Assembly: GCA_963821535.1 (NCBI GenBank)
Contig: CAWGEC010000003.1
Span: forward strand, 273,554-337,553
Direction of reading: 5' to 3'
Length of the DNA: 64,000 bases
Source: an uncultured Actinomycetes bacterium
Lineage (GTDB): Bacteria; Actinomycetota; Thermoleophilia; Gaiellales; JAICJC01
Shown here: positions 2,845-46,920 of the stretch, piece by piece
Numbering within the stretch: the stretch's first letter is position 1
Layout of the letters: the number at the start of each line of letters is the position of its first letter
The notes under the pieces: generated by a model
Told to the model about the DNA's origin: nothing
The model's input: the letters and a program-made list of their open reading frames with translations, nothing else
Database searches by the model: none
Made by a program: the position numbers and the translations under genes

Positions 2845-4534
2845 TGACCGGCGCGCGTCCGGGCCGCCTGATCCGCGGGAGCGCCGTAGCCGCCGTATCC
2901 GTATCCGCCGCCGTAGCCGTAGCCCGACTCGGACTCGGCGTCGGTCACGACCACCCCGAGGCCGAGCGCGCGGGACGTGCCGAGCTCGCGCCGCAGCTCG
3001 TGCAGCATCGGCCGGCGGACGAGGTCGAGCTTCGAGACGACCATGTAGGCGTCGGCCTGAGAGGTGAGGCCCATCGTGTCGGCGACGGGCAGCACCGGCG
3101 GGGTGTCGATCACGATCGTCTCGGCACGCTCGCGCAGCTCGGTGAGGAGCGTGGCGAGCGCCTTGGAGGCGAGGAGCGACGACGGGTCGGAGGGCGGCTC
3201 GCCGGCGACGAGCACGTGCAGCAGCGAGCCCGATGGCTCGTTCCCGTGGCCGTTCCGGCGTGCGCCGGGATCGGGGGCGCCGGGGACGACGACCGGGACG
3301 AGCGCCTCGTCGAGCGTCGCCTGTCCGAGGATGACGTCGGTGATGCCGGGGCGGCCGGTGAGGCCGAAGAAGCGGTCGAGGTACGGCGCGCGCAGGTCGA
3401 GGTCGACCAGGATGACGTTCTTGCCCGATGCGGCCATGGCGACCGCCAGGTTGGCGGCGGTCGTCGACTTGCCCTCCTGAGCGACGGCGCTCGTGACGAG
3501 GATCATCTGGGCCTGCGGGTCGAGGTTCGCGAAGTCGAGGCTGACCCTGAGCTTCTTGTAGGCCTCGCTGTGGATCCCGTGCGGATCGGCGAGGAGCGTC
3601 AGCTGGTCGTGCTTTCGCATGTCCTTGTCGGGCCGCGGCAGCCGGCCGAACAGCGGGAGGCCCAGCTCGGAGGCGACCTGCTCGGCGGAGCGGATGCGCG
3701 TGTCGAACGCCTCGCGGGCGAACACGAGGCCGATGCCGATGCACCAGGCCGAGGATGGCGCCGATCGCCGTGTTCCGCTTGGCGTTCGGGGCGAGCTGGG
3801 CGGCGCCGGACGCTCTGCTCTGGACGGCGCTCTGCCCGGCGCCCGAGTCGGCGTTCGCCCGCAAGCTCCACGACGTAGTTCTGGGCCGCGGTGGCCTTCC
3901 GGTCGAGTTCGTTGTACGTCGCGAAGTCGGCCTGCAGCGTCGCGTTGGGCAGCCCAGCGTTCCTGTCGGCCTGGTACTTCGCGAACGCAACGTCGCGCAG
4001 ATGTCCGTAGCGATCGGATCTGCCGTCTGTGCCGCGGCCTGGAGCTTCGCAACGTGGTCCTGCGGCCTGCTGCCTGGCTGTAGTCCGCGAATGCCGGTCG
4101 CGTAGGCGTTCGTCAGGGCCACCGCGCCGGCCTTCGTGTGGTACGAGACCTTGAATTCGACGATCGTGGCGTTCGGGTCCGCGGTGACGGTCGACGCCTT
4201 GAGGAGCTTGCCGGGCGTCATGTCGGTGATCTCGGGCACCTTCGCGAGCGCCGCGCCAGCGACCTGCGGACTCTGAGCGACCTGCGCCATGGTCTGGACG
4301 TACTGCTGAGATGTCCCCGACGACGTGTGCTGGTTGGACAGCGGGTTCGTGAGGTCCTGGGCGACTGATCAGGTCGTCCGCCGTCGCCTGGAAGACCGGC
4401 GCCTGCCGCGACGAGATGAAGTACGTGACCGCGGTGACGAGGACGAGCGTCGTGACCACGATCCACCACCCTCGGCGGATTACGCGCACATAGTCGGCCA
4501 TGGGGCGGCCCGGACGCCCAATATCATCGATCAC
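2841..4534 (-). pseudogene. Wzc-like polysaccharide co-polymerase (Wzz domain) fused to a BY-type tyrosine kinase; about 4 frameshifts as assembled
   Basis: Pieces lie in three frames. (1) MADYVRVIRRGWWIVVTTLVLVTAVTYFISSRQAPVFQATADDLI (ORF 3599..4534). (2) QDLTNPL...MAQVAQSPQVAGAALAKVPEITDMTPGKLLKASTVTADPNATIVEFKVSYH (ORF 2041..4290). (3) YQADRNAGLPNATLQADFATYNELDRKATAAQNYVVEL. (4) Kinase part in ORF 2841..4052, with Walker A VTSAVAQEGKSTTAANLA, VILVDLDLR, IVIDTPP and tail ESGYGYGGGYGYGGYG. Frame switches at about 4360, 4010, 3870 and 3745. GTG 4534 is preceded by SD AGGGAGGAA (4541-4549). Confidence 0.85.
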
Positions 4535-4649: not shown

Positions 4650-4670
4650 ATCCCGCTCACACAGCGGGAT
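4650..4670 (-). terminator. Hairpin overlapping the hisIE stop codon (possible operon-end terminator, no U-tract)
   Basis: ATCCCGCT (4650-4657) / AGCGGGAT (4663-4670) perfect 8-bp inverted repeat with a 5-nt loop. Lies between hisIE and the Wzc-locus upstream region. Confidence 0.3.
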
Positions 4671-5256
4671 CGCGGCGCCTGCGCCCGAGCACTGAGAGCG
4701 GCTCCAGCGGATCGCGGCCGTCGCCCGCGAGGAGCACCATCGAGTGGAACCACAGGTCGGCCACCTCCGACACGAGGTGATCGCTCGCGGGCTCGGCGAG
4801 CACGGTCTCGACGGCCTCCTCGCCGACCTTGCGCTGGCGCGCCTCGCGGACATCGGCCAGGAGGCCGGCGACGTACGAGCGCTCGTCGCCGCGCTCGGCC
4901 CGCTCGGCGATCGTCTGTGCCAGGTCGGGGAGGGCCGGCGCGGCGGCGTCGAAGCACGACTCGGTTCCCGTATGGCAGGTCGGCCCCGCCGGCAGCGCCA
5001 GCATCAGGACGGCATCGCCGTCGCAGTCGGCGGCGAGCGACGTGACGGCGAGGACGTTGCCCGACGTCTCGCCCTTCTTCCAGAGCCGGTCGCGCGAGCG
5101 GGAGTGGAAGTGCCCGAGCCCGGTCTCGAGGGTCGCCGCGAGCGCCTCGGCGTCCATGTAGGCGAGCATGAGCACCCGGCCCGTGTCGGCGTGCTGGACG
5201 ACGCACGGCAGGAGGGCGCCGTCGGGGATGCTCAGAGGCGGATCGGAAGGCCGCAC
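4657..5256 (-). CDS. hisI: Bifunctional phosphoribosyl-AMP cyclohydrolase / phosphoribosyl-ATP pyrophosphatase HisIE
   Basis: Tail of ORF 4657..5754: LPCVVQHADTGRVLMLAYMDAEALAATLETGLGHFHSRSRDRLWKKGETSGN...CDGDAVL...GPTCHTGTESCF (HisI), then SYVAGLL...KVGEEAVETV...EVADLWFHSMVLL (HisE). Start placed at GTG 5256; this is uncertain and overlaps the hisF end. Confidence 0.88.
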   Translation of the reverse strand: MRPSDPPLSIPDGALLPCVVQHADTGRVLMLAYMDAEALAATLETGLGHFHSRSRDRLWKKGETSGNVLAVTSLAADCDGDAVLMLALPAGPTCHTGTESCFDAAAPALPDLAQTIAERAERGDERSYVAGLLADVREARQRKVGEEAVETVLAEPASDHLVSEVADLWFHSMVLLAGDGRDPLEPLSVLGRRRRDPAV

Positions 5257-5984
5257 GCGGCCACCTCCTGCTTCACCTCGGCCATCGTCGCCTCGCCGTC
5301 GTGGAAGATCGACGCTGCCAGCGCGGCCTGCGCGCCGGCGGCGAGGGCGGCCGCCATGTCCGCCGCCCCGCCCGCGCCTCCCGAGGCGATCACCGGCACA
5401 TCCACCGCGGCCGTGACCGCCGCGATCAGGTCGAGGTCGTATCCGGCGTGGCCGCCGTCGGCGTCGATGCTCGTGACGAGGAGCTCGCCCGCGCCGCGCT
5501 CGACCGCCTCGCGCGACCACTCGATCGCGTCGCGGCCGGTGGGCCGGCGGCCGGCCGAGGCGTACGCCTCCCAGCCGCCGTTTGCCCGCGCGGCGTCGAC
5601 CGCCACCACGACGCACTGCGAGCCGAGGCCCGCCGCCAGCTCCGACACGAGCTCGGGCCGGTCGAGCGGAGCGGTGTTCACGCTCACCTTGTCGGCCCCG
5701 GCCAGGAGCAGGTCGTGCGCCCGCTCGAACCCGTCGACCCCCCCGCCGACGCACAGCGGCACGTCAACCCGCCGGGCCGCCCGCTCGACGGCGTGCAGGA
5801 GCTCGGCCCAGGCCTCCTCTCCGGCCGAGATGTTGAGCCAGACGATCTCGTCGGCGCCGGCCTCGGCATAGCGGGCGGCGGCGTCCACGGGGTCGCCGCA
5901 GTCGCGCAGGTCGCGGAAGCGCACGCCCTTCACGAGCCGGCCGCGGCGCACGTCGAGGCACGGGATGATCCGCCTACGCAGCAT
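5232..5984 (-). CDS. hisF: Imidazole glycerol phosphate synthase cyclase subunit HisF
   Basis: 250-aa ORF MLRRRIIPCLDVRRGRLVKGVRFRDLRDCGDPVDAAARYAEAGADEIVWLNI...VSVNTA...VIASGGAG...ASIFH. Canonical HisF sequence pattern. Confidence 0.95.
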   Translation of the reverse strand: MLRRRIIPCLDVRRGRLVKGVRFRDLRDCGDPVDAAARYAEAGADEIVWLNISAGEEAWAELLHAVERAARRVDVPLCVGGGVDGFERAHDLLLAGADKVSVNTAPLDRPELVSELAAGLGSQCVVVAVDAARANGGWEAYASAGRRPTGRDAIEWSREAVERGAGELLVTSIDADGGHAGYDLDLIAAVTAAVDVPVIASGGAGGAADMAAALAAGAQAALAASIFHDGEATMAEVKQEVAACGLPIRL

Positions 5985-6588
5985 CCGCGCCCCGCTCGAG
6001 GAACGCGGCCAGGAGCGCCCGGCCGGCGGCGCCGCTTCGCTCCGGGTGGAACTGCACCGCCGCCACCCGCCCGCGGCCGACGGCCGACGGGAACGAGGTG
6101 CCGTCGAGGTCGGTCGTCGCGATCACGTCGGAGGCGTCGGCCGGCTCGGCGACGTAGGCGTGTGCGAAATAGCAGACGGCCGGGAGCGTGCCGCCGAGCG
6201 CGCCGGGGTCGGCCGGGGCGACGTCGTTCCAGCCCATGTGCGGGACGGTCTGCGCCCAGTCGATCCGGCGGACGACGCCGGGGAGGAGCCCCAGGCACTC
6301 CGTGTCGCCCTCGTCGCTTCGGTCGAAGAGGAGCTGGAGGCCGAGGCAGATGCCGAGGACGTGCGCTCCGCGGTCGGCCGCCGCCCGGATGGCGCCCGCC
6401 AGGCCGGTCGCCCGCAGCCGCTCCATCGCCGGCCCGGCCGCGCCGACGCCGGGGACGACCAGCATCCGCGAGCGCTCGGCGACCTCCGGCTCGGTCGTGA
6501 TCTCGACGCCGACGCCGAGCCGCTCGAACGCGGCTCGCAGGCTGCGCAGGTTTCCGGCGCCGTAGTCGACCACCGTGACCGCGGTCAC
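5974..6588 (-). CDS. hisH: Imidazole glycerol phosphate synthase glutamine amidotransferase subunit HisH
   Basis: GTG 6588 forms a GTGA overlap with the hisB stop. VTAVTVVDYGAGNLRSLRAAFERLG...LVVPGVGA...HVLGICLGLQLLF...MGWN...YFAHAYV...AVQFHPERS. The long N-terminal extension of ORF 5974..7950 is Arg/Pro-rich shadow sequence. Confidence 0.93.
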   Translation of the reverse strand: MTAVTVVDYGAGNLRSLRAAFERLGVGVEITTEPEVAERSRMLVVPGVGAAGPAMERLRATGLAGAIRAAADRGAHVLGICLGLQLLFDRSDEGDTECLGLLPGVVRRIDWAQTVPHMGWNDVAPADPGALGGTLPAVCYFAHAYVAEPADASDVIATTDLDGTSFPSAVGRGRVAAVQFHPERSGAAGRALLAAFLERGADAA

Positions 6589-8090
6589 AGGCTGCCCTTC
6601 GTCGAGGGGATCTCTCCCGCCCGCCGGGGGTCCTCGGCCACGGCGACGCGAAGGGCGCGGGCCAGCGCCTTGAAGGCCGCCTCGAGCACGTGGTGGTCGT
6701 CGGTGCCCGCGCCGCTCATGTGGATGCCGAGGCGGCCGCTTCGGGCCAGCGTGTCGAAGAAGTGCGGCACGAGGCTCCCGGGGAGCGCGCCGATCCGGTC
6801 GCTCGCGAACGGCAGCTCGATCGCGGCGACGCCGCGGCCGCCGAGGTCGACCGTGGCGTGTGCCAGCGCCTCGTCGAGCGGCGCGCGGGCGTCGCCGAAG
6901 CGGGCGATGCCGGCCCGGTCGCCGAGGGCGTCGTCGAGCGCCTGGCCGAGCGCGATCGCGACGTCCTCGACCGTGTGGTGCTCGTCGACCCACAGGTCGC
7001 CGGTGCAGGTGAGCTCGAGGTCGATCAGGGAGTGGGTCGAGAGCGCGGTCAGCATGTGGTCGAGCATGCCGATCCCCGTGGCCACGGCCGACCGCCCGGA
7101 GCCGTCGAGCACGACCCGGCAGCGGATGTCGGTCTCGGCCGTGCGGCGCTCGGCGGCGCCGATCCGCGTCCCGGCCGGCGGCTCGGCGGTCTCCGCCCGG
7201 GCGCCGAGCGCCGCCAGCAGCACGTCGTCGTCGGCCGGCGTCGCCGGGCTGATCCGGAGGTGCGTCGCGAGGAGCGGGTCGGCGAAGGTGCGCACGACGA
7301 GGCCCTGCTCGAGGAGCCGTTTCGAGACCGGCGCCGCCGGCTCGCCGAGGTCGACGAGCAGGAAGTTCGCGCACGAGTCCTGCACCTCGAGCCCGGCCGA
7401 GCGGAGCGCCGCCGCCATGCGGTCGCGCTCGGCGACGGTCGCTGCGGCCCGGGCGCGCATCTCGCCGGCTTCGCGGATCGCGATCCCCGCGAGGGCGACC
7501 GAGAACGACGAGATCGACGCCGGCGGGCGGATCGCGTCGAGCCGGCGGGCGATCTCGGGCGGCGCGAGGATGTAGCCGATCCGGGCGCCGGCCAGAGCGA
7601 ACGCCTTCGAGAAGGTGCGGACGACGACGGTGTTCGTGCGCTCGCGGACGAGCGGCGAGAGATCGCGCCCGCCGAACTCGACGTACGCCTGGTCGATCAC
7701 GACGAGGCCGTCGCGCTCGCGCAGGTCGTCCTCGGTCGCGTCGGCGCCGGTCGGGTTGTGCGGCACGCACGACCACCACAGCCGCACCGCCGGCGACGGC
7801 TCGTGGACGAGCGTCGCTCCGGCCAGCCGGGTGGCGTTCCCGTACCAGGAGTAGAACGGGCGGCGCACGTACGCCTCGTCGCCGGGGCGAAGGGCGAGGA
7901 GCGCGCACAGCTGCACCGCCTCGTCTGCGCCGCCGGTCAGGACGACGCACTCAGGGTCGAACCCGGCGTGCTCGGCGATCGCGTCGCGAAGGCCGGCGTA
8001 GGTGGCGTCCGGGTAATTGTGGACGGCCACCCTGCCGAGCGCCGCGACGGCCCGGCCGTACCAGGCCGGCGGCACCGGCGAGAGGTTCAT
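6585..8090 (-). CDS. hisC/hisB: Single ORF encoding histidinol-phosphate aminotransferase (HisC, N-terminal) fused in frame to imidazoleglycerol-phosphate dehydratase (HisB, C-terminal). The true start is probably ATG 8212, reached through a frameshift in the A6 run.
   Basis: HisC part: NYPDATYAGLRDAIAEHAGF...VPHNPTGA...VVIDQAYVEFGG...VVRTFSKAFALAGARIGY. HisB part: RTAETDIRCRVVLDGSG...TGIGMLDHMLTALSTHSLIDLELTCTGDLWVDEHHTVEDVAIALG...HHVLEAAFKALARAL. No stop or start codon at the junction (about 7160-7200). The in-frame conserved sequence LPIRPDLIDAEPYHWEEG continues upstream of the listed Met. Confidence 0.85.
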   Translation of the reverse strand: MNLSPVPPAWYGRAVAALGRVAVHNYPDATYAGLRDAIAEHAGFDPECVVLTGGADEAVQLCALLALRPGDEAYVRRPFYSWYGNATRLAGATLVHEPSPAVRLWWSCVPHNPTGADATEDDLRERDGLVVIDQAYVEFGGRDLSPLVRERTNTVVVRTFSKAFALAGARIGYILAPPEIARRLDAIRPPASISSFSVALAGIAIREAGEMRARAAATVAERDRMAAALRSAGLEVQDSCANFLLVDLGEPAAPVSKRLLEQGLVVRTFADPLLATHLRISPATPADDDVLLAALGARAETAEPPAGTRIGAAERRTAETDIRCRVVLDGSGRSAVATGIGMLDHMLTALSTHSLIDLELTCTGDLWVDEHHTVEDVAIALGQALDDALGDRAGIARFGDARAPLDEALAHATVDLGGRGVAAIELPFASDRIGALPGSLVPHFFDTLARSGRLGIHMSGAGTDDHHVLEAAFKALARALRVAVAEDPRRAGEIPSTKGSL

Positions 8091-8208
8091 GTCGAAGCGG
8101 CGCAGGCGCCCCTCGGGCAGCCCCTCCTCCCAGTGGTAGGGCTCAGCGTCGATCAGGTCGGGGCGGATCGGCAGCGCTGAAAATTGGTGCCTGGCACCGT
8201 TTTTTCAC

Positions 8209-9069
8209 TCATGGGATGAGGTTCTGGATCGGGAGCACGAGCAGCGAGCGGGCGCCCGCCGCCTGGAGCGGGGCGAGCAGGTCGGAGACCGCGTCGGCGT
8301 CGACCACCGCGTGGACGGCGTGCAGGCCGCCGCGGGCCAGCGGCAGGACGGTCGGCGAGTCCATGCCCGGCAGGAGCGCGATCACGTCGTCGAGCGAGTC
8401 GTCCGGTGCGTTCAGCATCAGGTAGCGCTTCCCGCGGGCCGCGACGACGCTCTCGATCACCATGGCGAGCTCGTCGGCCACGGCCTGCGCGCGTCCGTCG
8501 AGGCCGCGGCGGGCGACCAGCGTCGCCTGCGACTCGAGCACCGTCGCGATCGGGCGCAGCCCGTTCTGGCGCAGCGTGTCGCCGCTCGAGACGAGGTCGA
8601 CGATGCCGTCGGCCGCATCCAGCCGCGGGGCCAGCTCGACCGAGCCGCGGATGGGGACGGTCTCGACGGCCAGGCCCTCGGCGGCGAAGAAGGCCGCCGC
8701 GGTCCGCGGGTGGGCGGTTGCGACCCGCCCGCCGTCGAGCTCCGAGACGGCGTCGATGCCCCCGCCGGCCGGCACGGCGACCTCGAGTGCGCAGCGCCCG
8801 AACCCGAGCGGTACCAGCTCCTCGACGTCGGCGCCGGACTCGATGATCTGATCGCGGCCCGCGACGGCCGCGTCGACGGCTCCGTCGGCGGTCCACGCCG
8901 GGATGTCGTCGGCGCGTGCGAACAGCACCTCGATGTCCCAGCGCGAGCAGTGCGCGTGGAGCGCCCGGCCGTTGACGTCGACCTCGACGCCCGCGGCCCG
9001 CGCCAGCTCGAGCGCGGGCGCGTGCAGCCGCCCCTTCGACGGCAGCGCCAGGCGGAAGGGGCGCGTCAC
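8209..9069 (-). CDS. hisG: ATP phosphoribosyltransferase HisG (long form with C-terminal regulatory domain)
   Basis: GTG 9069 forms a GTGA overlap with the yerC-like stop. VTRPFRLALPSKGRLHAPALELARAAGV...DIPAWTADGAVDAAVAGRDQI...LVSSGDTLRQNGL...KRYLMLNAP. 286 aa. Confidence 0.92.
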   Translation of the reverse strand: MTRPFRLALPSKGRLHAPALELARAAGVEVDVNGRALHAHCSRWDIEVLFARADDIPAWTADGAVDAAVAGRDQIIESGADVEELVPLGFGRCALEVAVPAGGGIDAVSELDGGRVATAHPRTAAAFFAAEGLAVETVPIRGSVELAPRLDAADGIVDLVSSGDTLRQNGLRPIATVLESQATLVARRGLDGRAQAVADELAMVIESVVAARGKRYLMLNAPDDSLDDVIALLPGMDSPTVLPLARGGLHAVHAVVDADAVSDLLAPLQAAGARSLLVLPIQNLIP

Positions 9070-9365
9070 GGCCGCCTCGTCGAGCGGCCGCGCCGGTCGA
9101 GCACGAGCCGGTAGCCGCCCTCGCCGTGGCGCAGCCAGTGGGCGACGCGTGTCACCGTGGCGGTGGAGCCGTGCACGGTGCGGGCGACCTCGGCGTAGGG
9201 GATGCCGCGGTCGAGCAGCTGGGCGGCGTGCCACCGGTGGGCCAGCACCTCGAGCTCGTGGAGCGTGCAGACATCGCGCAGGAACGCGGCCGCCTCGTCG
9301 CGGCTGCGGAGCGCGACGACCGCGTCGCAGAGGTCGTCGACCTCGGGTGTGCGCCATTCGCTCAT
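9066..9365 (-). CDS. TrpR-like YerC/YecD-family DNA-binding protein, first gene of the his operon (candidate histidine regulator)
   Basis: 99-aa ORF MSEWRTPEVDDLCDAVVALRSRDEAAAFLRDVCTLHELEVLAHRWHAAQLLDRGIPYAEVARTVHGSTATVTRVAHWLRHGEGGYRLV. This is the YerC/TrpR-family pattern (DlCT..El, StaTvtRV, G.GGY). Confidence 0.85.
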   Translation of the reverse strand: MSEWRTPEVDDLCDAVVALRSRDEAAAFLRDVCTLHELEVLAHRWHAAQLLDRGIPYAEVARTVHGSTATVTRVAHWLRHGEGGYRLVLDRRGRSTRRP

Positions 9366-9375
9366 CGTGATAGCA

Positions 9376-9391
9376 TTTTAGCATGCTAAAA
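9376..9391. promoter_or_regulatory. Perfect 16-bp palindrome TTTTAGCATGCTAAAA in the 17-bp yerC/hisA divergent gap; candidate operator
   Basis: Read directly: self-complementary over all 16 nt. It is the only AT-rich patch in the region. It overlaps the hisA ATG (9383) and both divergent -10-like boxes (TAGCAT 9371-9376 on plus, TAAAAT 9380-9375 on minus). Confidence 0.6.
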
Positions 9392-10099
9392 CGTTGGGGC
9401 AAGCAGGCGGTGCCGGCGATCGACCTCCTCGGAGGCCGGGTCGTGCGGCTCCACCAGGGTCGCTACGACCGCGTGACCGTGTACGCGGACGACCCCGTCG
9501 CGGTCGCGGAGGACCTGGTCTCGGCGGGCGCCACGCGGCTCCACGTCGTCGATCTCGACGCGGCCAGGGACGGCGCGCGACCGGCCGCCCACTCCGAGAT
9601 CATCGCCCGCATCGCGGCCCTGCCCGGCGTCCGCGTCCAGCTCGGCGGCGGCATCCGGAGCGAGGCCGACGTGGCCGCGGCGCTCGAGACGGGCGCCTGG
9701 CGGGTGGTCGTGGGCACGCTCGCCGCGGACGAGCCCGAGACGGCCGGCCGGCTCGCGCGCGAGACGGGCCGCCTGGTGGCGGCGATCGACTGCCGCGACG
9801 GCAGCGTCCGCGTGCGCGGCTGGGCGGCCGACTCGGGCGCGGATCCCGTCGAGCTCGTGCGGCGGCTCGTCGACGCGGGCGTTCGCGACGTCGCGGTGAC
9901 CGCCATCGACCGCGACGGGACCGGGGCCGGGCCGGACGCGAGCCTGATCGGGCGCCTGCGGCCGGCGGTACCGGGCGAGCTGATCGCGGCGGGCGGCGTC
10001 TACGCGCCCGTCGACGTGACCGCGGCCGTGGGGGCCGGGGCCGACGCGGTCATCGTGGGCCGGGCGCTCTACGAGGAGGGACGGTTCCGCGTTGCATGA
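9383..10099 (+). CDS. hisA: 1-(5-phosphoribosyl)-5-[(5-phosphoribosylamino)methylideneamino]imidazole-4-carboxamide isomerase HisA (could be a dual HisA/TrpF PriA type)
   Basis: 238-aa ORF MLKRWGKQAVPAIDLLGGRVVRLHQGRYDRVTVY...RLHVVDLDAARDG...VQLGGGIRS...AIDRDGTGAGPD...IAAGGV...VIVGRALYEG. Confidence 0.92.
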   Translation: MLKRWGKQAVPAIDLLGGRVVRLHQGRYDRVTVYADDPVAVAEDLVSAGATRLHVVDLDAARDGARPAAHSEIIARIAALPGVRVQLGGGIRSEADVAAALETGAWRVVVGTLAADEPETAGRLARETGRLVAAIDCRDGSVRVRGWAADSGADPVELVRRLVDAGVRDVAVTAIDRDGTGAGPDASLIGRLRPAVPGELIAAGGVYAPVDVTAAVGAGADAVIVGRALYEEGRFRVA

Positions 10100-10107
10100 T
10101 CATGCAA
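10092..10107. promoter_or_regulatory. ARG-box-like perfect palindrome TTGCATGATCATGCAA upstream of argR
   Basis: 16-nt self-complementary sequence (TGCAT-N4-ATGCA core, the half-site type I recall for actinobacterial ArgR operators). It overlaps the hisA stop (10097-10099) and lies 23 nt before the argR ATG. A TATTGT -10-like box is at 10115-10120. Confidence 0.6.
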
Positions 10108-10129
10108 TAGACGGTATTGTCATGCGTTC

Positions 10130-10588
10130 ATGCCTGATCGCCGCCAGCTCATAGCCTCCCTGCTCGACCGCCACGCCGTCACCTCCCAGCCCCAGCTCAT
10201 CGAGCTGCTCGCCGGGAACGGCGTAAACGTGACCCAGGCCACCGTGTCGCGCGACCTGGAGCGGCTCGGCGCGGTGCGGGTGCGGAAGGGCGGCCATCTC
10301 GTCTACGCCCTTCCGGCCGATGAGGCGCCGGTCGATCCCCTCGAGCGCCTGCGCGAGGCGCTCGCGCTCGTGCGGTCGATCGAGCCGTCGGGAAACCTGC
10401 TGGTGCTGAAGACCGCGCCGGCCAACGCGATGCCCGTCGCGCGGGCGTTCGACGTCACCGAGCTCGCCGAGGTCGCCGGCACCGTGGCGGGCGACGACGT
10501 GATCCTCGTCGTCGCGCGGGAGCCCCACACCGGCGCGGATGTGGCCGCCGTGTGCGCCGAGGTCCAGTCGGGTGCCGTCCGTGCCTGA
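10130..10588 (+). CDS. argR: Arginine repressor ArgR
   Basis: 152-aa ORF MPDRRQLIASLLDRHAVTSQPQLIELLAGNGVNVTQATVSRDLERLGAVRV...LVLKTAPANAMPVARAFD...AGTVAGDDVILVV. Winged-helix N-terminal domain plus an ArgR C-terminal domain (GT.AGDDT-like motif). Confidence 0.93.
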   Translation: MPDRRQLIASLLDRHAVTSQPQLIELLAGNGVNVTQATVSRDLERLGAVRVRKGGHLVYALPADEAPVDPLERLREALALVRSIEPSGNLLVLKTAPANAMPVARAFDVTELAEVAGTVAGDDVILVVAREPHTGADVAAVCAEVQSGAVRA

Positions 10589-46847: not shown

Positions 46848-46920
46848 GGCGAGGTAGCTCAGTTGGTAGAGCACGCGACTGAAAATCGCGGTGTCGCTGG
46901 TTCGATCCCGGCCCTCGCCA
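46848..46920 (+). tRNA. tRNA-Phe (anticodon GAA), CCA not encoded
   Basis: Folded by hand. Acceptor GGCGAGG/CCTCGCC, D arm GCTC-AGTTGGTA-GAGC, anticodon arm CGCGA-CTGAAAA-TCGCG, T arm GCTGG-TTCGATC-CCGGC, discriminator A. 73 nt. Followed by TCT, not CCA. Confidence 0.93.

Follow-up and report, generated by a model that had tools for sequence, protein, structure and literature searches.

How are the histidine biosynthesis genes of an uncultured Gaiellales bacterium regulated, and could one protein bound at one site control two divergent transcription units? The question is raised by a 64-kb stretch of contig CAWGEC010000003.1 (73% guanine plus cytosine, GC; "the window" here means this whole stretch), in which a gene for a 99-amino-acid YerC/YecD protein, hereafter hisR, heads the gene order hisR-hisG-hisC/B-hisH-hisF-hisIE and lies back to back with hisA. 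The ATG codons of hisR and hisA are separated by a gap of only 17 bp, and a perfect 16-bp palindrome, TTTTAGCATGCTAAAA, lies at 9376-9391. The initial annotation, made from the letters alone, had reported this operon, its translational coupling to hisG, the short gap and the palindrome; the coordinates are as it claimed, and the sequence, Pfam, NCBIfam and tblastn agree on the gene order. It had further suggested that one dimeric repressor could shut both his units, an interpretation supported by the protein family, by a match to published boxes and by conservation in Gaiellales. We conclude that the 99-amino-acid protein is probably a HisR-type repressor, which as a histidine-loaded dimer on a 20-bp operator at 9374-9393 would silence both his units.

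YerC was named HisR by Ashniev et al. (2022, PMC9413887), a histidine-dependent repressor from the TrpR family that acts on genes for making and taking up histidine. It was described in 492 genomes, with sites predicted in 395 from Firmicutes and in 97 from other phyla, including Coriobacteriia and Proteobacteria. The palindrome that it recognises is 20 bp long; Firmicutes, Coriobacteriia and Synergistetes have the version cacTTTAnnnnnnTAAAgtg, and Proteobacteria a TGTA...TACA version. Proteobacteria and some Firmicutes are already known to place hisR first, directly behind such a site, an arrangement also present in Peptococcaceae, Negativicutes and Elusimicrobium. In vitro work covers one protein, the purified HisR of Ruminococcus gnavus, which binds its own site only with histidine (PMC9413887). 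The Actinobacteria of that study are only Coriobacteriales and Eggerthellales, in which hisR never lies beside his genes, and its supplements include no Gaiella, Thermoleophilia, Rubrobacter or Conexibacter and cover no Gaiellales. The mention in the initial annotation of HisR predictions in Firmicutes was thus correct but understated, given the 492 genomes, the other phyla and the histidine-dependent binding of one protein.

The window protein is a member of the YerC/YecD family, the family published as HisR. It is encoded on the minus strand at 9066-9365 (99 codons, ATG at 9365-9363) and scores 71.5 bits against TIGR02531 (cut-off 42.2) and 67.3 bits against PF01371 (cut-off 27), but only 20.4 bits against the TrpR equivalog TIGR01321, whose cut-off is 67.25. 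Sequence searches match it at 35-37% identity to PDB 3FRW, 3KOR and 3G1C, three YerC-like proteins of solved structure (E-values 1e-14 to 1e-16), the last of which is regarded as a HisR in PMC9413887. Its AlphaFold model has six helices and a predicted local distance difference test score (pLDDT) of 91.3, and superimposes on these three structures with template modelling (TM) scores of 0.87-0.92 and root mean square deviations of 1.1-1.7 A, giving the all-helical TrpR-like fold that the initial annotation had named. The published hallmarks of HisR are a tyrosine replacing Arg69 of TrpR and a second helix reading S-T-A-T-x-S/T-R (PMC9413887). The window protein has both, as Y57 and S67-T68-A69-T70-V71-T72-R73 in its helix-turn-helix. 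Y57, S67, T68, T70, T72 and R73 do not vary among 20 homologues from Gaiellales; the alanine does. The residues with which TrpR contacts tryptophan are not conserved in HisR (PMC9413887).

The predicted HisR operator is the 20-bp sequence CATTTTAGCATGCTAAAACG at 9374-9393, an unstranded element whose core is the perfect palindrome and whose dyad lies between 9383 and 9384. The core is unique in the window even when three mismatches are allowed, and it fits exactly the TTTA-N6-TAAA core of HisR sites, a pattern with a single occurrence in the window and none across 100 shuffles. As the initial annotation had noticed, the site sits in an AT-rich island; the 30-mer starting at 9362 has a GC fraction of 0.33, the lowest of the whole window. 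The perfection of the palindrome was rejected as evidence when taken alone, since first-order Markov simulations of 64 kb produced 6.4 perfect 16-bp palindromes on average, and the window itself has several that are GC-rich. The argument therefore rests on AT-richness, motif match and conservation, with conservation decisive.

For the motif match, symmetric position matrices were built from the Coriobacteriia, alphaproteobacterial and gammaproteobacterial sites in Additional file 3 of PMC9413887. All three rank 9374-9393 as the top 20-mer in the window. The best-fitting type is the alphaproteobacterial one (TGTnTTAGCnnGCTAAnACA), which scores 22.2 bits, within the 12.8-29.1 range of its own sites. 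A matrix made from Gaiellales sites gives 40.7 bits at the same position, and its sole other match of at least 8 bits in the window is an overlapping site shifted by 8 bp (9366-9385, 17.3 bits). The element is placed as published HisR boxes are, a 20-bp palindrome upstream of hisR and of histidine genes, between hisA and hisR-hisG-hisC/B-hisH-hisF-hisIE. An Rfam search of the window found no T-box or his leader, its only match being a transfer RNA (tRNA) gene at 46848-46920, and no leader is possible upstream of the his genes because the gap is only 17 bp.

Conservation was examined in a scan of one genome per species, in which at least 546 genomes encode this HisR subtype; the best 80 loci (L001-L080) were fetched, and all come from Gaiellales, Gaiellaceae or Thermoleophilia metagenome-assembled genomes. 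The named homologues of the window HisR are from Gaiellales, and the closest relative, L001, has 94% DNA identity to the window. The initial annotation had asked whether the yerC-his synteny holds across the clade: hisR-hisG occurs in 80/80 loci, with divergent hisA upstream and hisC, hisB, hisH, hisF and hisIE downstream wherever the fetched sequence reaches. It had also staked its proposal on conservation of the palindrome in orthologous hisA/yerC gaps. In 75 of the 80 loci the 16-mer recurs with no more than four mismatches, at most once per locus and always in the hisA/hisR gap; L047, L051, L053 and L073 have recognisable, more diverged versions in the same place, and in L059 the left arm of the site carries a 1-nt insertion. 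The close clade has the sequence cgTTTTAGCATGCTAAAAtg and most Gaiellaceae loci have caTGTTAACGTGCTAACAtg, and the positions flanking the operator vary without constraint. The site is thus strictly associated with hisR and the his genes in Gaiellales. When metagenomes were scanned for the exact 16-mer, 105 stretches matched. All the high-GC ones among them, about 21, are again the hisA/hisR gap; the remainder are unrelated low-GC or mid-GC contigs.

How would a protein bound at this site affect transcription? A consensus scan of 9200-9550 calls a single sigma-70-like site, with none in shuffles. It is the predicted hisR promoter at 9375-9402 on the minus strand, with a -35 element TTGCCC (9402-9397), a 16-nt spacer and a TG-extended -10 element TAAAAT (9380-9375), the hexamer that the initial annotation had singled out as the yerC -10 box. 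TAAAAT lies inside an operator arm, and the operator positions 12-13 (TA) and 17 (T) are kept in 45-52 of 53 unique sites. The hisR ATG stands 18.5 nt from the dyad, a distance that is constant in the close clade; the predicted transcription start is near 9368, with a predicted leader of about 3 nt.

On the other side, hisA occupies 9383-10099 of the plus strand, divergent from hisR (PF00977, 210 bits), with a probable in-frame start at ATG 9383-9385. Immediately upstream lies a third half-site-like unit, cgTGaTAGCAT (9366-9376, plus strand), which is phased at 8 bp with the left arm of the operator and contains a predicted extended -10 element (TGn plus TAGCAT, 9371-9376); the block TGnTAnCA is kept in the close clade, just outside the palindrome. 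TAGCAT had been proposed as the hisA -10 box, 6 nt before the ATG, and the geometry recurs, in that 67/78 loci have TANNNT at precisely 6 nt before the hisA start, against a background of 0.54% for all ATG and GTG codons. In actinobacterial promoters, a TANNNT hexamer at 6 nt is the geometry expected for a leaderless transcript. This suggests that hisA is leaderless and that its -10 box doubles as a repressor half-site.

The claim that the hisA ATG lies within the palindrome stands as far as many relatives go, since the sole in-frame start upstream of the region that aligns to the HisA N-terminus is the central ATG in L001-L012, L015, L019, L021-L023 and L025; the claim is less firm in the window, which also offers GTG 9410. 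The aligned region of L009, read by eye, holds the conserved N-terminal V-D-L motif, and an M-L-x-x-W N-terminus is recurrent in Gaiellaceae HisA. From these relatives we argue that the palindromic ATG is the probable start of hisA. Depending on the species, the hisA start lies -0.5, +7.5 or +15.5 nt from the dyad, that is, in 8-bp steps, because the hexamer in use is always a half-site-like unit, TAGCAT or TAACAT.

The regulatory scheme that we propose is as follows. A histidine-loaded HisR dimer would bind the 20-bp operator at 9374-9393, which overlies two predicted back-to-back promoters. The hisR-proximal arm would hold the -10 element TAAAAT of the hisR-hisG-hisC/B-hisH-hisF-hisIE unit, and a leaderless hisA would have its start codon, and probably also its first transcribed nucleotide, at the centre of the operator. 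The putative hisA -10 element TAGCAT abuts the other arm and resembles a further half-site. Since the operator would cover the hisR -10 element and the hisA start and touch the hisA -10 element, binding is expected to keep RNA polymerase off both promoters. Ample histidine would thereby silence the his cluster together with hisR.

Several observations weigh against this scheme, or against parts of it. The Coriobacteriia sites are the only actinobacterial HisR sites published (PMC9413887), and their matrix gives 11.1 bits at 9374-9393, under its lowest own site at 14.1 bits. Neither the window, scanned with the matrix, nor the metagenome contigs, scanned for the exact 16-mer, yielded a second regulon member, so the search beyond the locus that the initial annotation had advised recovered the same locus in high-GC contigs but no other regulon gene. 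GTG 9410 is a possible start of hisA in the window, given a Pfam match that opens only at residue 10, and start-codon and promoter function may account for the conserved central ATG and TAGCAT as much as repressor contacts do. In the protein, all Gaiellales sequences have substitutions at two helix-2 positions that are acidic in the three solved YerC-like proteins of Firmicutes (FFED to FLRD and RFEV to RWHA), and conserved acidic residues of this helix have been suggested as possible histidine contacts (PMC9413887). The effector could therefore differ, because the histidine pocket is undefined in that study. A YerC-family regulator acting on the same site might sense a pathway intermediate such as histidinol or 5-aminoimidazole-4-carboxamide ribonucleotide (AICAR), or another amino acid, much as the HisR2 paralogues, which are linked to tyrosine genes, have a different predicted function (PMC9413887). 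We regard this as improbable, since in all 80 loci the only genes to which hisR is linked are those of histidine biosynthesis, the Proteobacteria HisR with a like layout and a similar box is a predicted histidine repressor (PMC9413887), and Staphylococcus aureus YerC also lacks one of the acidic residues.

The overlap of promoter, start codon and palindrome admits two further readings. The palindrome could chiefly reflect how promoters and start codon are built in a GC-rich genome, from a pair of AT-rich -10 elements that overlap and a leaderless ATG, and not be a repressor site, with YerC acting elsewhere or not on DNA; its arms do hold TANNNT hexamers, its centre is a start codon, and perfect 16-bp palindromes are not rare in the window. 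Such a reading would leave much unaccounted for, since a promoter needs no dyad of 16-20 bp, the symmetry is retained in Gaiellaceae where the hisA start is 16 nt outside the centre, hisR is always accompanied by the site, and the site matches HisR boxes derived independently in other phyla; we give it very little weight. HisR might also activate, or might play a dual role by repressing one promoter to the benefit of the other, as the overlapping promoters would compete for RNA polymerase and blocking one could free the other. This too appears very improbable: the 20-bp site overlies both the hisR -10 element and the hisA start and extends to the edge of the hisA -10 element, which leaves no room for polymerase on either side, and the known HisR and TrpR proteins are co-repressor-dependent repressors. 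Histidine-dependent repression of both units thus remains our preferred reading.

Which known system does the locus most resemble? In the alphaproteobacterial HisR of Asticcacaulis, Maricaulis and Brevundimonas, the operon is hisR-hisGD(CB)FAH(IE) with the box TGTnTTAGCnnGCTAAnACA (PMC9413887). It shares with the window the family, the fold, hisR as first gene, a long hisG, the hisC-hisB and hisIE fusions, and a single 20-bp box directly upstream of hisR with the core TTAGC-nn-GCTAA; the (CB) fusion stands next to a similar HisR box in the table entries for Asticcacaulis and Brevundimonas (PMC9413887). Unlike these, the window belongs to a Gaiellales host (Thermoleophilia, Actinomycetota), hisD is gone from the operon, and hisA is split off and divergent, with its start codon at the centre of the dyad in the window's clade. 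Because hisA is split off and divergent, one box would serve two promoters.

The Coriobacteriia and Firmicutes HisR, with the box cacTTTAnnnnnnTAAAgtg, share the exact TTTA-N6-TAAA core, hisR autoregulation and histidine biosynthesis targets, whereas the outer positions of the box differ (caT rather than cac). In Coriobacteriia, moreover, there are three separate sites (at the his operon, the hisXYZ transporter and hisR), and hisR is not clustered with the his genes. Escherichia coli TrpR is more distant. The fold is alike (TM 0.65-0.75 to the window model), as are the co-repressor-dependent dimer, the promoter-overlapping palindrome and autoregulation, but its operator sequence is another one, it regulates trp rather than his genes, and the window protein fails the TrpR equivalog model. 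A possible further likeness is tandem binding at 8-bp phasing, known for TrpR from the title of PDB 1TRR, which may have a counterpart in the third unit at 9366-9376.

These comparisons allow some more tentative suggestions, of which we remain doubtful. The HisR half-site (T)TAGCAT would also be the -10 hexamer (TANNNT) at two overlapping, essentially leaderless divergent promoters, in which case repressor and sigma factor would compete for the same bases. The 8-bp steps of the hisA start equal the phasing of TrpR tandem binding, which hints that HisR may occupy arrays of half-sites, including the 9366-9376 unit and the repeats of locus L186 described below, and not a single dyad. Finally, the box type and the layout, with hisR first and hisC fused to hisB, are like those of Caulobacterales and Maricaulales, and the whole module may have moved between Alphaproteobacteria and Thermoleophilia.

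Three loci outside the set of 80 represent more distant HisR relatives, from a search for the nearest ones beyond Gaiellales; two of them, L186 and L188, retain hisR-hisG with hisA divergent beside it. In L186, where HisR is 44% identical, divergent hisA lies beside hisR-hisG-hisD-hisB, and the hisA/hisR gap at 4920-4965 contains the 8-bp-phased repeats GTGATAAT, GTGCTATT, GTGCTAAT and ATGTTAGC. In L188 (HisR 51% identical) the layout is the same, with separate hisC and hisB, and GTGCTAGCATGCTAT is found at 3938-3968. L187 has a stand-alone hisR with a proteobacterial-type box, TGTATTAGTGTGTTAATACA, upstream at 3965-3990. Among the stretches from the metagenome scan, six low-GC contigs (L086, L087, L110, L133, L169 and L176; 36-39% GC) each have TTTTAGCATGCTAAAA three or four times over a few kb. 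L086 was the sole one inspected; its copies lie at the starts of a 609-amino-acid open reading frame (ORF), relaxase-like by eye only, and of a 182-amino-acid ORF. These repeated copies are unrelated to his genes and may be the operator of a mobile element.

The remaining genes of the operon are all on the minus strand. The long form of hisG with a C-terminal regulatory domain (8209-9069; PF01634, PF08029, TIGR00070 and TIGR03455) starts with GTG, and the hisR stop overlaps this start as GTGA at 9066-9069, the coupling mentioned above. It is followed by a hisC-hisB fusion for histidinol-phosphate aminotransferase and imidazoleglycerol-phosphate dehydratase (6585-8212; PF00155 and PF00475 in one ORF), by hisH (5974-6588; tblastn synteny and coordinates), by hisF (5232-5984; ORF and synteny) and by hisIE (4657-5256; ORF translation and synteny), whose start is uncertain, with GTG 5256 as a candidate. 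The single hisC-hisB ORF is found in 67/73 Gaiellales loci, 73 of the 80 having been assessed.

From comparison with L003, L004 and L005, the likely start of hisC is ATG 8212-8210, which overlaps the hisG stop as ATGA. The longest mechanical hisC-hisB ORF begins at 8090 because of an apparent 1-nt frameshift near 8180-8183, where the window has TTTT and L004 has TTTTT; the sequences are compatible with either a homopolymer sequencing error or a genuine frameshift. The 118-nt hisG-hisC gap (8090-8212) was considered as a regulatory spacer and rejected, as it is the N-terminal coding region of hisC with the apparent frameshift. Within it, a hairpin-like insert, GGTGCCAGGCACC, lies between an A-run and a T-run; some close relatives have the insert and L003 is without it. 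hisD was not found in the his operon or anywhere within the 64-kb window. It lies between hisG and hisC only in more distant Gaiellaceae loci (28/80, among L046-L080), and a protein search for the hisD of the window's clade returned only Gaiellaceae HisD, with the gene inside the operon there. The Gaiellaceae HisD is unusually short, at about 325 amino acids.

Downstream of hisA, a second AT-rich perfect palindrome, TTGCATGATCATGCAA, at 10092-10107 overlaps the hisA stop codon, and a related box, GGTATTGTCATGCGTTCATG, lies just upstream of argR (10130-10588). Both boxes are kept in relatives with adjacent argR (18 checked), and those at 10092-10131, of the form TGCAT-N4-ATGCA, look like an ArgR autoregulatory operator pair by their sequence. 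ArgR was considered as the protein binding the hisA/hisR palindrome and was rejected, as argR is adjacent only in the closest relatives (24/80 loci), the box tracks hisR throughout, and the palindrome upstream of argR differs in sequence.

The locus represents a known type of switch in a lineage where HisR had not been described, and no new mechanism is revealed. It extends HisR, a recently defined amino-acid repressor, to Gaiellales and Thermoleophilia, an abundant and almost uncultured order of soil Actinobacteria and its class. It corrects the impression that actinobacterial his genes are controlled by T-boxes only, or that actinobacterial HisR is confined to gut Coriobacteriia. For Gaiellales it offers a compact regulatory model, in which a single operator, its dyad falling on the hisA start codon, would control a pair of divergent promoters that overlap and are probably leaderless.

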